Part shown: piece after piece, positions 5,193 through 51,585 of the stretch
Layout of the letters: every line of letters begins with the position of its first letter
Numbering within the stretch: position 1 is the first letter of the stretch
Position numbers and translations under genes: made by a program
Source of the DNA: Acidimicrobiales bacterium
GTDB lineage: Bacteria > Actinomycetota > Acidimicrobiia > Acidimicrobiales > SZUA-35
Direction: 5' to 3'
DNA: 52,313 bases
NCBI GenBank assembly: GCA_024644005.1
Contig: JAHELU010000003.1
Location: 1-52,313, forward strand
Notes under the pieces: model-generated
Database searches by the model: none
What the model was told of the DNA's origin: nothing
What the model saw: the letters and a program-made list of their open reading frames with translations, nothing else

Positions 5193-7088
5193 ATGGCGAA
5201 GACGACGGTCAAGTTGGATCAGGAGCTGATCGACTCGCTGACCGAGCAGCTGCGCCACAACCGCCCGATCAGACGGGTCCTCGGCAGCGACGGCGTGCTC
5301 AACATCGACCGCCAGCTCCCCTTCCTGTTCGTGTACCGCCCCCCGCCCGGGGAGGCGAACTCGGTGTTCTCGACCATCTTGACCGGCGGGGCCTCCTACC
5401 TCCTGGCCCCCGCCGACCCGAAGACCCGGGCGTGGACGAAACGGCTGGTGGCCGAGATCGCCGAGCAGCTGTCCGCGGTGTTCGGCTCGTTCCTCATCAT
5501 CGAGCTCTGGCCGGCTCAGGAGGTGGAGGTCAACGAGAAGTCCCCTGCCGCAGTGCAGCCTGCGTTCTCGGTTCGTCACGACCAGACAGATGGGACCTCG
5601 GCCGCCCTGGAACGGCTCGTTTCGTCGCTCGAGCGGATCGTCGTCATGAAGCAGAAGGCCAGGGTGGAGCGGGTCTCCCTCGCCAACGTCGGCCGACCCG
5701 GCATGGCCCGCCTCCTCTCGCCCAAGACCGAGGACGACCTCAACGTCACGCTGCTCGGCGTCGAGGTGTCCCCCATCTACCTCGACCCCGAGACCGGTGA
5801 CGTGCTGCCCCTCGTCGGCCGGGCGCTGGCCAGGCTGACGGCCCGCTCGCTGCAACGGGCCGCCTTCGAGTTCGCCCGGGCAGAGACCAACGATCGGTCC
5901 ATGCACTATCACGCGCTCGGCCGGCGGACCTTCGTCGCCGCCGCCAAGCGGGTCGACGGGCAGCTCGCCGCGGTCGCCGAGTCCTTCGATCTGCTGCTGG
6001 CGGTCACCCCCACCAACTCCGACGCCGCCCTCCGGGCGTTCCGGCGCTCGAAGTTCCTGCGGGCCCCGAGGTTCCACTACCGGCCGACGACCGTCGACCC
6101 GGATCTGCTGAAGCGACGGCTCTGGAACATCAAGATCGAACAGGTGGAGGACCCCGTCCTCGACCAGCTGTTCCGGGAGAAGCGACGGGAGCTCGACCTG
6201 AAGCTGACCCTGCTGGCCGACCGGGAGCGACACCGGTTCCTCCACACCAGCATGGCGCTCTACGGGCGGGTGAGGGCAGACCTGCTGGCCTCGGCCAACA
6301 GCATCCTCGACGAGGTCGAGCCGCCCGACAGCTCACCGACAGGCCAGCGGACCGTGACCGCCGGTGCCTTCATCGCCAGGGCCCAGGCCGAGCTCGATCG
6401 GATGAGCAACACGGGCGAGATGGGCGGGCGCATCATCGTCCAGGACGACGTGTCGTCGCTGATGGTCTCGTCGGGCAATCTGATCGTCGGGGCCAACATG
6501 TCGTTCCCGAGCAACCGGGTCGAGCCGCTGATCCAGCACGAGGTCGGCACCCACGTGCTGACCTACTGGAACGGCCGGGCCCAGCCGTTCAAGCTGCTGG
6601 CCACCGGGCTGGCCGGCCACGACGAGCTGCAGGAGGGCCTGGCCGTCTTCGTCGAGTACCTCGTCGGCGGGCTCACCGGGCCGAGGCTGCGAACCCTGGC
6701 GGCCCGGGTCGTTGCCGTCTGCGCCCTGGTCGACGGCGCCACGTTCGTCGAGACGTTCCGGCTCCTCCGCCACGACTACGGCTTCTCGGAGCGGATGGCG
6801 TTCCTCGTGACGATGCGGGTGTTCCGGGGCGGCGGCCTGACCAAGGACGCGGTCTACCTCCGGGGCCTCGAATCGGTCATGAGCTACCTGGCCAAGGGGG
6901 GACGGCTCGACACGCTGTTCGTCGGCAAGATCGCCACGGAGCACGCCTCGGTGGTCGAGGAGCTGCAGCGGCGGCAGGTGCTGGAGCCGCCCCCGTTCCG
7001 ACCGTCCTACCTCGACCAGCCGGACTCCCACTACCGCATCGAGCGCATCAGGGAGAACGCCAAGCCGGCCGATCTGGTCGACGTGTGA
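5193..7088 (+). CDS. QEGLA-motif protein, DUF1704/MATCAP-type putative metallo-carboxypeptidase
   Basis: ORF 4938..7088. The ATG at 5193 is preceded by GAGGAGAGGG. It has an HExxH motif (HEVGTH) and the QEGLA motif (DELQEGLAVFVEY). Confidence 0.85.
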   Translation: MAKTTVKLDQELIDSLTEQLRHNRPIRRVLGSDGVLNIDRQLPFLFVYRPPPGEANSVFSTILTGGASYLLAPADPKTRAWTKRLVAEIAEQLSAVFGSFLIIELWPAQEVEVNEKSPAAVQPAFSVRHDQTDGTSAALERLVSSLERIVVMKQKARVERVSLANVGRPGMARLLSPKTEDDLNVTLLGVEVSPIYLDPETGDVLPLVGRALARLTARSLQRAAFEFARAETNDRSMHYHALGRRTFVAAAKRVDGQLAAVAESFDLLLAVTPTNSDAALRAFRRSKFLRAPRFHYRPTTVDPDLLKRRLWNIKIEQVEDPVLDQLFREKRRELDLKLTLLADRERHRFLHTSMALYGRVRADLLASANSILDEVEPPDSSPTGQRTVTAGAFIARAQAELDRMSNTGEMGGRIIVQDDVSSLMVSSGNLIVGANMSFPSNRVEPLIQHEVGTHVLTYWNGRAQPFKLLATGLAGHDELQEGLAVFVEYLVGGLTGPRLRTLAARVVAVCALVDGATFVETFRLLRHDYGFSERMAFLVTMRVFRGGGLTKDAVYLRGLESVMSYLAKGGRLDTLFVGKIATEHASVVEELQRRQVLEPPPFRPSYLDQPDSHYRIERIRENAKPADLVDV

Positions 7089-43231: not shown

Positions 43232-43344
43232 AGGATCAGCCGGTAGCTCCACGAGCCGAGATCTCGGCGCTGTGTATCCGGAGGATCCGCCGAGATCCAA
43301 CCGTGGCGAAGCTAGCGGCCGAGCTTACTCGCTGAGGTCCTCGG
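43231..43344 (+). repeat. mosaic palindromic intergenic repeat, copy A (modules L, inverted M, R)
   Basis: It shares about 113 nt with 50780-50893 and contains the 14-bp perfect palindrome GCCGAGATCTCGGC. It lies between the convergent hemerythrin and acyl-CoA ligase genes. Confidence 0.8.
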
Positions 43345-43360
43345 TGTCGCCGCAGGGCCG

Positions 43361-45060: not shown

Positions 45061-45453
45061 CTAGAACTCGGTCCACTCGTCCTCCGGGCCGCCCTGGTAC
45101 TCCGGCAGCGGCTCGGACGGGTCGCGCTCCGGCGGGGCGCCGTGGGTCCGGGCGGGCTTGGCGGCTGGTCCGGATCGGGGGCGGGCGGCGGAGCCGGTCG
45201 ACGAGCCGTCGGCCCCACCGCCGGTCTCGCCGTCGTCGCTGTCCGGGCCGTAGCCGTAGCACATCTGCACGCCATCGACGTCGAACGGTCGTCCGAGCGA
45301 GGCGACGACGAAGCTCGACCAGTCCCCCGACTTGCGCTGCACGTCGATCTTGCCGCCCTCCGCCAGTGCTTTCTCCAGGTCCTCGACCGGAGCCATGACC
45401 GCCCACTTGTCGGTCTTCGTCTTGCGGAAGCGAGGCGGGATCTTCTCTGCCAT
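45061..45453 (-). CDS. hypothetical protein: small folded N-domain, Gly/Pro/Ser-rich linker, acidic C-terminal tip ending EDEWTEF
   Basis: ORF 45061..45513. I chose the ATG at 45453 (MAEKIPPRFRKTKTDKW) because a -10-like CATACT lies 6 nt upstream. I recognise no family. Confidence 0.5.
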   Translation of the reverse strand: MAEKIPPRFRKTKTDKWAVMAPVEDLEKALAEGGKIDVQRKSGDWSSFVVASLGRPFDVDGVQMCYGYGPDSDDGETGGGADGSSTGSAARPRSGPAAKPARTHGAPPERDPSEPLPEYQGGPEDEWTEF

Positions 45454-45563
45454 CAGCCCAGTATGTCGCTTCGGCTCCGGCTCTGCGCCCGCCGCTCGCC
45501 CCGGAGCGAACATCGGCGGAACTTGGGCCGAGAATGGCGGGTGGGCGCCTCGGAGGACCTAGG

Positions 45564-49554: not shown

Positions 49555-50406
49555 ATGACCCGTGCCATGCTCTGGCCCATGCCCCTCGCGGTCGACACGT
49601 TCGGGTCCACCCTGCGGTGGTGGCGCACGACCCGTCGCTACAGCCAGCTCCAGCTGGCCAACGAGGCCGAGGTGTCGAGCCGTCACATCAGCTTCCTCGA
49701 GACCGGCAAAGCGCAGCCGAGCCGGGAGATGGTGGTCCACCTGGCCATCGTCCTCGATCTGTCGCTGCGGGATCGCAATGCCCTGCTCCACTCGGCCGGG
49801 TATGCCCCCGCCTATCCCCATGGAGATCTCGATGCGCCCGAGATGGACGATGTGCGCCACGTGATCGGCCGGATCCTCGAGGCCCACTCCCCCAACCCGG
49901 CGGTCGTCGTCGACCGGCGGGGCGAGCTGGTGGACAGCAATCTGGCGGCGGCCAGGCTGATCGCCGAGACCGTGGCGTCCGACAGTGCAGCGCTGGCCCC
50001 GACCCTCAACATCCACCGGTTGACCCTCCACCCGGACGGCGTGCGGGCCAGGACCGGCAACTGGAGCGATGTGGCGGCCAACGTGCTCCAGCGGCTGGAG
50101 CGGGAGCAGGCCCACCGGCCGGCCGACGAGCAGCTGGTCGACCTGCTCGACGAGGTGCTCGCCTATCCCGGGGTCGCCGGGCTGCGACGCAACGCCGCCC
50201 TGCCCACCGGTGCCGACCTGCTGGTCCCGCTCCAGTTGCAGACCTTCGGCGGGACCGAGCTCCGTCTCGTCACCACCATCGCCACCATCGGCGCACCCTA
50301 TGACGTCACCCTCGACGAGCTCAGGCTCGAGACGTTCTTCCCCGCCGACGAGGCAACGGCCGAAGTCCTGCGATCCTGGAGCGCGCCTGCCCAGGGGCCG
50401 CCGTAG
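49555..50406 (+). CDS. MmyB-like XRE-family transcriptional regulator
   Basis: LRWWRTTRRYSQLQLANEAEVSSRHISFLETGKAQPSREMV is an HTH, followed by an MmyB-type C-terminal domain. Confidence 0.8.
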   Translation: MTRAMLWPMPLAVDTFGSTLRWWRTTRRYSQLQLANEAEVSSRHISFLETGKAQPSREMVVHLAIVLDLSLRDRNALLHSAGYAPAYPHGDLDAPEMDDVRHVIGRILEAHSPNPAVVVDRRGELVDSNLAAARLIAETVASDSAALAPTLNIHRLTLHPDGVRARTGNWSDVAANVLQRLEREQAHRPADEQLVDLLDEVLAYPGVAGLRRNAALPTGADLLVPLQLQTFGGTELRLVTTIATIGAPYDVTLDELRLETFFPADEATAEVLRSWSAPAQGPP

Positions 50407-50560
50407 GGCGACGCCGCTCGGCTCGAGAATCGGGTCTGCAGCCTGGAGCGGGTTGCCGAGGCAGGCCGCTCCTCCCCCGGTCGACGCCACCTCTTGCGGC
50501 CGACGACGCGCCGACCACCGGCCAGTGCTCGCTCGATGTTGGCCACGTCCCGGCTCCGAG

Positions 50561-50589
50561 TTGACTATCGAACATATGTTCGATACTGT
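50561..50589 (+). promoter_or_regulatory. promoter-like TTGACT-17-TACTGT with a perfect LexA (SOS) box in the spacer
   Basis: TATCGAACATATGTTCGATA (50566-50585) is a perfect 20-bp palindrome. Its core TCGAAC-N4-GTTCGA is an exact match to the actinobacterial SOS box. Confidence 0.7.
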
Positions 50590-50594
50590 GATCT

Positions 50595-50621
50595 CACTGG
50601 CGAACCGGCGGTTCGCCAGTG
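50595..50621 (+). other. perfect 12-bp stem / 3-nt loop hairpin at the predicted 5' end of the SOS-promoter transcript
   Basis: CACTGGCGAACC-ggc-GGTTCGCCAGTG, read directly. Confidence 0.6.
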
Positions 50622-50779
50622 GTAGGGGAGGTTGGGGCCGGGGGCAACCGGGCCGCCTCGTCACTCCATCTGTGCGGCACCCGGCGGTCCGACTCCGCCA
50701 TCGGGCCGTCGGGAACGGATGGATACGGGTCGGCCCGGTTGGGGCAGCGCCTGCGGCGGCGCAGATCCGGGTCGCTCAG

Positions 50780-50893
50780 GAGATCCGCCGGTAGGCGGAT
50801 CGACCCGGTATACAGCGCAGAGATCTCGGCTCGTAGAGCCGAGATCCCACCGTGGCGAAGCGAGAGACCTCGCCTACTCGCTGAGGTCCTCAG
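50780..50893 (+). repeat. mosaic palindromic intergenic repeat, copy B (modules L, M, R)
   Basis: It matches 43231-43344, with the 45-nt M module in the opposite orientation. The soxG stop codon lies inside its terminal palindrome CTGAGGTCCTCAG. Confidence 0.8.
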
Positions 50894-51585
50894 TCGCTCA
50901 CGACGACGCCGAGCTCCGACCCGGCATCGAGGATCGCATCGAAGAGGTACTGGCCGAAGGAGCGATCGCAGGCCACGAGATAGGACCGGAGACGGTCGGT
51001 CCCGACCCCCCGACGGCTGTCGCCGACGTCGTCCCGAACGATGTCGCAGCTGACATCGGCCACCGGCGCCGAGACGACCGCCCCGTCCGGGGTCATCGGG
51101 TCGCTCCAGTCGACACCGCAGAGCTTCTCGAGCACCGAAGCCGACCGGTGGCCGGTCAGCCGGAACACGGCCCGGCTGTGGGTGTGATCGATCACGCTGA
51201 CGTGGCCGGTGGCATCGAGCGCGGCGGCCACGGTCGCAACCGCAGCCGCCGAGCCGAGCACCAGCCACTCGGTCGGCCGCTGACCGCAGATGAGCGCGTC
51301 GCCGACGCGTCTGCTGGCACCGAAGCCGACCCCCAGCTGGCTCGCCGTCACCGAGTCGTCGTCTGCCCGCACCAGCAGCTTCGTCACGGCCGATCGGTCC
51401 TGCAGCGTCAGCCGGTCGTGCAGCGTCAGCCGGTCGTGCAGCGTCAGCCGGTCGTGCAGCGTCAGCCGGTCGTGCAGCGTCAGCCGGTCGTGCAGCGTCA
51501 GCCGGTCGTGCACGGTCAGCTCGCCCGCGGCGACGGCGGAGGAGCTCACCACTGGGCTCTCGAAGGCGGGGAGCCGCTCAGCCAC
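50890..51585 (-). CDS. soxG: sarcosine oxidase gamma subunit family protein carrying an internal hexapeptide tandem repeat
   Basis: 231-aa ORF with a SoxG-like core (RPTEWLVLG, VIDHTHSRAVFRLTGHRSASVLEKLCGVDW). Its start overlaps the soxA stop by 8 nt. Confidence 0.75.
   Translation of the reverse strand: MAERLPAFESPVVSSSAVAAGELTVHDRLTLHDRLTLHDRLTLHDRLTLHDRLTLHDRLTLQDRSAVTKLLVRADDDSVTASQLGVGFGASRRVGDALICGQRPTEWLVLGSAAAVATVAAALDATGHVSVIDHTHSRAVFRLTGHRSASVLEKLCGVDWSDPMTPDGAVVSAPVADVSCDIVRDDVGDSRRGVGTDRLRSYLVACDRSFGQYLFDAILDAGSELGVVVSD
51403..51510. repeat. 18-bp perfect tandem repeat x6 (CAGCGTCAGCCGGTCGTG) inside soxG
   Basis: Six identical units, read directly, flanked by degenerate partial units. 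On the coding strand they encode (DRLTLH)x6. Confidence 0.95.

Follow-up and report, generated by a model that had tools for sequence, protein, structure and literature searches.

The window analysed here is a stretch of 52,313 bp, an entire contig, whose MmyB-like protein has its nearest relatives in metagenome-assembled genomes (MAGs) of Acidimicrobiales. Our subject is a predicted small RNA gene with a LexA (SOS) box in its promoter, which lies between a gene for an MmyB-like regulator (49555-50406, plus strand, with HTH_31 and MLTR_LBD domains) and a soxG-like gene (50890-51585, minus strand). A first-pass annotation, made from the letters of the window, had placed the box in a gap between two gene 3' ends, at 50406 and 50890, and this holds for both open reading frames (ORFs); TTGACT at 50561-50566, the 17-nt spacer, TACTGT at 50584-50589 and the perfect 20-bp palindrome that it described are likewise all found in the sequence. 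Its statement that no gene stands behind the box is right for protein genes and wrong in so far as a conserved small-RNA-like unit follows, and the 12-bp hairpin that it saw is real, but is at 50595-50621, one base 5' of the 50596-50622 that it gave. The features of the unit, as predicted from sequence, conservation and folding, are as follows.

50561-50566, plus strand: −35 hexamer TTGACT, from the sequence and its conservation across lineages.
50568-50583, strand-neutral: LexA (SOS) box TCGAAC-ATAT-GTTCGA, the core of the palindrome at 50566-50585.
50584-50589, plus strand: −10 hexamer TACTGT (TAnnnT form), with the T, the A and the last T invariant in the alignment.
50595-50746, plus strand: whole predicted small RNA of about 152 nt, from the full-length match of covariance model R1 and the end of conservation at both sides.
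50595-50621, plus strand: P1, the 5'-terminal hairpin CACUGGCGAACC-GGC-GGUUCGCCAGUG, from the fold and covariation.
50622-50644, plus strand: G-rich linker GUAGGGGAGGUUGGGGCCGGGGG, without pairs in the consensus structure; its GGG and GGGC blocks are invariant.
50637-50639 with 50743-50745, plus strand: three extra outer pairs of the long hairpin.
50645-50741, plus strand: long hairpin with helices P2 to P4, from RNAalifold and pair counts.
50673-50680, plus strand: GUGCGGCA, invariant in nine of nine lineages, most of which (UGCGGCA) is unpaired in an asymmetric internal loop.
50694-50701, plus strand: C-rich apical loop CUCCGCCA of 8 nt in the consensus structure, with CCGCC invariant.

The palindrome is TATCGAACATATGTTCGATA (50566-50585) and its core, TCGAACATATGTTCGA (50568-50583), is the LexA box, which occupies the whole spacer between the −35 and −10 hexamers and abuts the latter. 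All 12 specified bases agree with TCGAAC(N4)GTTCGA, the consensus of Mycobacterium tuberculosis LexA (PMC3381160). There is one exact occurrence of TCGAAC-N4-GTTCGA in the 52,313 bp, and 100 shuffles yielded none. Similarly, TTGACN-N16-18-TANNNT has a single match on both strands of the window, at 50561-50589, where 0.10 would be expected. A generic sigma-70 scan found no promoter at the site, because TACTGT fails its rule based on TATAAT; TAnnnT is the actinobacterial form of the −10 hexamer.

Loci for comparison came from a genome collection, from contigs encoding homologues retrieved by protein searches, and, in the case of one metagenome contig, from a DNA pattern for the RNA core. The unit, from the −35 hexamer to the end of the long hairpin (50561-50746 in the window, about 185 nt), is shared by nine distinct Acidimicrobiales lineages, namely the window, L002 (= L082/L083), L003, L086, L087 (= L088), L090 (= L091), L094, L101, and L110; the MAGs of L002, L090, and L110 are CAVQRR01, GCA_039195375.1, and GCA_041156745.1, respectively. 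Its boundaries are sharp. Mean pairwise identity is 0.33 upstream of the −35 hexamer, 0.80 from the −35 to the −10 hexamer including the box, 0.70 in the 5' hairpin, 0.69 in the G-rich linker, 0.72 in the long hairpin, and 0.29 downstream of it; both flanks are unalignable, the −35 hexamer and the base of the long hairpin being the limits of conservation. Within the box, the 12 half-site bases are invariant in all nine carrier lineages, while the central N4 takes seven forms (ATAT, GAAC, AAGT, AACT, ACTT, AGTT, and ATAC). Fixed half-sites around a free N4 are the signature of an operator for a dimeric repressor, unlike that of an ordinary promoter spacer. In the −35 hexamer TTG is invariant, with TTGAC in six of the nine lineages and TTGCC or TTGCA in the rest. 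This comparison supports a conserved LexA-type operator sitting within a conserved, predicted plus-strand promoter.

The box and the RNA core travel together. The box is 79-90 nt upstream of the core in every locus that bears a core, and orthologous loci without the box are also without the core, and vice versa; both are absent from six distinct orthologous loci (L004, L005, L084/85, L089, L092/93, and L111/112). A first metagenome pattern, GCGGCANCCGNCGGNNCGACNCCGCCAT, was too strict and gave no matches. A relaxed pattern gave 15, among which L101 is the sole homologue, the other 14 being chance matches, none with a box or the surrounding structure. L101, although its retrieval relied solely on the pattern of the RNA core, carries a box 87 nt before the core (103 nt from start to start) as well as an MmyB-like gene. 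The covariance model R1, built from the alignment, finds one full-length copy per carrier locus at 101-153 bits (in the window, 50595-50746 at 151 bits, E = 3e-27, full length). Elsewhere in the window, and in the remaining loci that were searched, it has no match.

Two observations on LexA-like sites stand apart from the unit. Sites with at most two mismatches to TCGAAC-N4-GTTCGA number 10 in the window, as compared to 2.5 ± 1.5 in shuffles, and the best of them, TCGAACGGTCGTCCGA (one mismatch, 45281-45296), lies inside a 150-amino-acid ORF at 45061-45513 on the minus strand; the excess is probably an effect of codon or TCGA composition and not a set of real operators. Another perfect box, TCGAACAGGTGTTCGA, is intergenic at 5384-5399 of L012, a Marmoricola (Nocardioidaceae) MAG, near an unrelated MmyB-like paralogue.

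RNAalifold, applied to the nine sequences, gives a 5' hairpin of 10-12 bp, an unpaired G-rich linker, and a hairpin of about 100 nt. The consensus structure has 49 pairs, in which 94.5% of the cells are paired, as compared to 26-53% in controls whose 3' partners were slid along by 1-3 columns. Changes on both sides were found at 17 pairs, against 7.7 ± 1.8 in shuffles (0 of 500 reach 17) and 1-6 in the slid controls, but the nine sequences are related, so that the shuffle numbers overstate the significance and are not probabilities; the slid-partner control together with the compensatory pairs is the sounder evidence. Compensatory pairs occur in all five helices: P1 has them at 4 of its 10 aligned pairs (97.7% of cells paired), and the helices of the long hairpin at 13 of their 39. 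For example, the P1 sequence of L087 is almost wholly different, and the hairpin still forms. A pseudoknot of the apical loop with the internal loop or with the linker, which was also considered, would join motifs that do not vary. For the RNA of the window (50595-50746), the minimum free energy is −93.2 kcal/mol, with z = −4.07, and its transcription start is predicted near 50595-50597.

The strand on which selection has acted can be read from the non-Watson-Crick cells. The plus strand shows G·U in 51 cells, as compared to 11 cells with A·C, which would be G·U on the minus strand; the energy of the consensus fold is −81 kcal/mol for the plus strand, as against −52 for the minus strand, and each single sequence folds better on the plus strand. 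The asymmetry and the weaker consensus fold of the minus strand therefore argue for selection on the plus-strand RNA. At one G·U position of P1, found in four lineages, the DNA palindrome is broken and the pairing of the plus-strand RNA kept. A mirror promoter that had been suggested on the minus strand is not conserved, its GATAGT in the window being GATCGT in L002.

P1 itself has some likeness to a LexA site. The copy in the window (50595-50621) includes CGAAC-N5-GTTCG, a dyad that resembles the LexA box but is wrongly spaced. With CGGAC in the 5' arm, most of the other lineages keep a G·U pair in the RNA and break the dyad in the DNA, so that the likeness is probably incidental.

Taken together, we put at roughly 0.7 the probability that 50561-50746 is a small RNA gene of a new family that stands alone and is directly SOS-controlled through repression by LexA; from the sequence we infer LexA binding, damage induction, and the exact ends of the RNA. 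The comparative evidence, with conserved promoter, operator, and structured unit, bears out the earlier suggestion of a small RNA to the extent of a small-RNA-like transcription unit. In the proposed mechanism, a LexA dimer on TCGAAC-N4-GTTCGA would fill the spacer between the −35 and −10 hexamers and block RNA polymerase. Upon DNA damage, RecA-stimulated self-cleavage of LexA would free the promoter, and a non-coding plus-strand RNA of about 150 nt, starting near 50595, would then be made. The 5' hairpin would protect the 5' end of this RNA, and the hairpin of about 100 nt probably terminates the transcript or stabilises its 3' end. Its likeliest mode of action, which we put forward tentatively and at less than even odds, would be base pairing in trans, in which the invariant CCGCC of the apical loop and UGCGGCA of the internal loop might pair with the G-rich ribosome-binding regions of trans-encoded mRNAs; by analogy with the C-rich loops of 6C RNA, CCGCC is a speculative candidate for the target-binding seed.

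Several points weigh against this account, in addition to the relatedness of the nine sequences. The U-tract expected after the long hairpin is missing in most copies, with U-rich tails only in L002 (GGUUUUGUGU) and L110 (GGUUUGGUAU), and a terminator scan of the window found none, despite the conserved strong terminal hairpin. The distribution of the unit is patchy, and the six orthologous loci from which it is absent include those closest by protein identity (L084/85, 79%). No target emerged from the 40 genes of the window: a scan of their start regions for duplexes with the three segments that are conserved and unpaired was uninformative in this G+C-rich DNA, with best scores near the median. 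The LexA motif of Acidimicrobiia is assumed here from the phylum-wide pattern, and not from the lexA and recA promoters of the clade itself; probes with the M. tuberculosis LexA and RecA proteins found no SOS genes in the window and the loci collected by then.

Other readings of the same unit differ in how well they agree with these data. One keeps the SOS-controlled RNA and changes its function, to a dedicated structured RNA of the DNA-damage response that would bind or sequester a protein, or act through RNA-RNA dimerisation. It is suggested by the covarying hairpin of about 100 nt, since its invariant unpaired segments UGCGGCA and CCGCC are mutually complementary, and by the G-tract linker, and we consider it unlikely. 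Y RNAs, which work with Rsr after UV damage in Deinococcus, are a parallel for the protein-binding form; an SOS effector of the protein-binding or dimerising kind, if real, would be without a described counterpart.

It is improbable, to a similar degree, that the small RNA is real but free of SOS control, with some other regulator than LexA, or no protein at all, binding the palindrome. The consensus for the box was defined outside Acidimicrobiia, whose LexA is unstudied, and in M. tuberculosis LexA peaks from chromatin immunoprecipitation lie at the small RNAs MTS1082, where a LexA site gave no damage induction, and MTS2823, whose peak has no SOS box (PMC3381160). These are likewise LexA sites tied to unannotated actinobacterial small RNAs, but neither has an operator inside a consensus promoter, and neither is homologous to the RNA described here. 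On the side of LexA, the full half-site agreement is with an experimentally defined consensus, TCGAAC is found in 17 of 17 actinobacterial lexA promoters (PMC2248561), the half-sites are invariant around a free N4, and the box is between the −35 and −10 hexamers, the classic position for a repressor.

We hold it just as improbable that the unit is a cis-acting part of its neighbours, either as the 3' untranslated region or terminator of the MmyB-like gene, or as a source of SOS-induced antisense or convergent interference with the downstream gene, which is soxG here. The upstream neighbourhood gives this reading its appeal. In eight of the nine lineages the unit comes directly after the MmyB-like gene and in the same orientation; the TGA stop of that gene is the TGA within the −35 TTGAC in L086 (3822-3827), L090 (about 5837-5842), and L094 (about 5822-5827), and in L003 (5890-5922) the coding sequence extends across the whole box and stops at a TAG within the −10 hexamer. 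These overlaps place the small RNA promoter inside the 3' end of a protein gene, an arrangement like that of some enterobacterial small RNAs, whose promoters lie within an upstream gene. However, the unit has a conserved −35 hexamer, −10 hexamer, and operator of its own. In L087/L088 the unit is 2.2 kb from the MmyB-like gene with two other genes between, and the box stays with the RNA, while the six orthologous MmyB-like loci mentioned above are without the unit.

Downstream, a convergent gene comes next in five lineages, the window among them, but neither the identity nor the orientation of this neighbour is constant, and the base of the hairpin marks the end of conservation. The downstream neighbours are as follows.

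Window and L002: soxG.
L003: LysR regulator, on the same strand.
L086 and L087: uncharacterised gene of 143-144 codons for its protein product.
L090: NAGPA-domain gene.
L094: acyl-CoA dehydrogenase.
L110: major facilitator superfamily (MFS) transporter.

As the downstream genes differ between lineages, the RNA is neither a leader RNA nor an antisense RNA to soxG, and the importance that had been given to antisense overlap with the soxG 3' end is not upheld.

The first-pass annotation had also proposed an SOS-induced micro-peptide locus, or a type I toxin-antitoxin pair comparable to tisB/istR, symE or dinQ, and this now appears highly improbable. In the eight lineages translated, no stop interrupts any of the three plus-strand frames over the conserved core, but this is expected because the DNA has about 73% G+C; no plus-strand start codon is conserved among the aligned lineages, and the C-terminal extensions differ completely. 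The Shine-Dalgarno-like GGGGAGG in the linker is present, although at 50625-50631 and directly abutting the only TTG, at 50632, with zero spacing, instead of at 50624-50630 with a 1-nt gap as had been reported. No hydrophobic peptide is predicted. The variable columns of the ungapped core fall in codon phases 8/9/6, without three-base periodicity, and the linker and 5' arm together measure 44, 36, 42, 37, 40, 44, 44, 43, and 41 nt in the nine lineages, with differences that are not multiples of three. On the minus strand, a 35-codon ORF that starts at ATG 50699-50701 and ends in the hairpin (MAESDRRVPHRW..., with the pattern MAES(D/S)RRVPH...) looked promising in three sequences, its N-terminal part being partly conserved, and was rejected: L087 and L101 have ACG in place of the ATG, a stop ends the frame after 12 codons in L090, and in L003 the frame is not kept, so that its C-terminal part differs. 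No ORF, start codon or frame is thus conserved on either strand, the substitutions are instead compensatory base-pair changes, and on these comparative grounds the unit is non-coding.

Lastly, a DNA-level element (a cruciform- or hairpin-forming repeat, a mobile-element remnant or an integration site) would suit a palindrome-rich region in which both strands fold well (z = −4.1 and −4.9) and a different hairpin-rich repeat is nearby, but it is very unlikely for a unit that is syntenic, single-copy in each locus and in the window, without terminal repeats or any match in collections of viral contigs, plasmids, and phages, preceded by a conserved promoter, and marked by the G·U asymmetry and the weaker minus-strand consensus fold.

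Among known RNAs, the unit has no match. Rfam 15 at gathering thresholds gave none in the whole window; at E ≤ 10, the region 50400-50900 gave four chance-level matches (M23, two microRNA models, and Betaproteobacteria-1), each well under half the gathering score of its family, and none to 6C. ARAGORN found no tRNA or transfer-messenger RNA (tmRNA). A hairpin resembling a T-arm, GGCGG-UCCGACU-CCGCC, was rejected, since the invariant C of its second pair faces a base that varies (G, C or U); the competing helix P4 shows compensatory changes. By these searches and by its structure, the predicted RNA is a new structural family outside the described RNA families, and the locus behaves like a LexA-repressed small RNA gene.

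The closest parallel in the phylum is the 6C RNA. Mycobacterial work indicates that 6C RNA acts through C-rich loops, and the RNA described here, also an actinobacterial stand-alone small RNA, has an invariant C-rich apical loop (CCGCC) as well. The architectures differ, 6C RNA consisting of two short C-loop hairpins and the present RNA of a 5' hairpin, a G-rich linker, and a 100-nt hairpin. In Corynebacterium glutamicum, 6C RNA is about 100 nt long, has a LexA-bound promoter, increases with mitomycin C and in a lexA mutant, and has a role in the SOS response (PMC5014011). It is nevertheless abundant without damage and is modulated only 2-3-fold by LexA, through a weak site upstream of the −35 hexamer; tight repression is predicted here, unlike in 6C RNA, because a perfect operator fills the core promoter.

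Outside the phylum, DinR of Klebsiella pneumoniae is a trans-acting small RNA of 157 nt that depends on a LexA-repressed promoter, represses ftsZ, and forms a non-coding arm of the SOS response (PMC10907235). Both RNAs would share this dependence on a LexA-repressed promoter, but the present one has its own LexA-operated promoter and shows no sequence or structure similarity to DinR. Actinobacteria are, to our knowledge, without Hfq. The LexA-controlled loci tisB/istR-2, symE/symR, and dinQ/agrB of Escherichia coli encode a small toxic protein and an antisense RNA. They resemble the present unit as short intergenic SOS-box units overlooked by protein annotation, and they differ in that no conserved ORF, overlapping antisense partner or second conserved promoter is found here.

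Some further features of the neighbourhood were recorded. The uncharacterised proteins of 143-144 amino acids in L086 (4157-4591, minus strand) and L087 (6359-6790, minus strand) have no Pfam match and are encoded convergently just downstream of the RNA. They are homologous to each other (31% identity, E = 7e-19), while the other context of the two loci differs, so the gene may have a loose genetic link to the small RNA, or the two loci may only share ancestry.

In the window, a hairpin-rich repeat of about 100 nt occurs in two copies, at 43246-43345 (copy A) and 50794-50894 (copy B), whose second halves are 86% identical as direct repeats and whose first halves are 85% complementary. Both copies are at gene 3' ends, copy A at those of a hemerythrin and an AMP-binding enzyme, and copy B at that of soxG, where it overlaps the last codons and the stop. 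The repeat looks like an element of the repetitive extragenic palindromic (REP) type or a bidirectional terminator. The transcript had been expected to reach copy B, but a link to the small RNA is rejected because the repeat lies outside the conserved unit and is absent from all other lineages. The soxG-like ORF also carries, at 51377-51538, an 18-nt tandem repeat of seven copies (the inner ones 94-98% identical) that is translated as (DRLTLH)n close to the N-terminus. The soxG-like gene of the near-identical MAG loci L002, L082, and L083 has instead a tract of CACCGGCAC-type repeats beside its stop, with a length that varies among the three; this tract is a hypervariable coding repeat.

Small RNAs under direct control of LexA are rare. 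The DinR study itself notes that other small RNAs directly regulated by LexA were lacking in its system (PMC10907235). Within Actinobacteria, the weak modulation of 6C RNA by LexA is the only experimentally supported case, so far as such control is concerned. A stand-alone small RNA with a perfect, phylogenetically invariant SOS box filling its core promoter is a clean candidate for a non-coding SOS arm in Actinomycetota, where SOS-dependent control of division is only partly understood. The unit would also be a new RNA family with good covariation support, fit for submission to Rfam. More generally, LexA boxes that seem to be orphans under protein-only annotation are a productive route to small RNA genes. 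Judging from the conserved operator and the structured unit behind it, Acidimicrobiales probably switch on a small RNA upon DNA damage, which would be a first regulatory lead in Acidimicrobiia, a class that is abundant in soil and water, mostly uncultured, and without experimental genetics.

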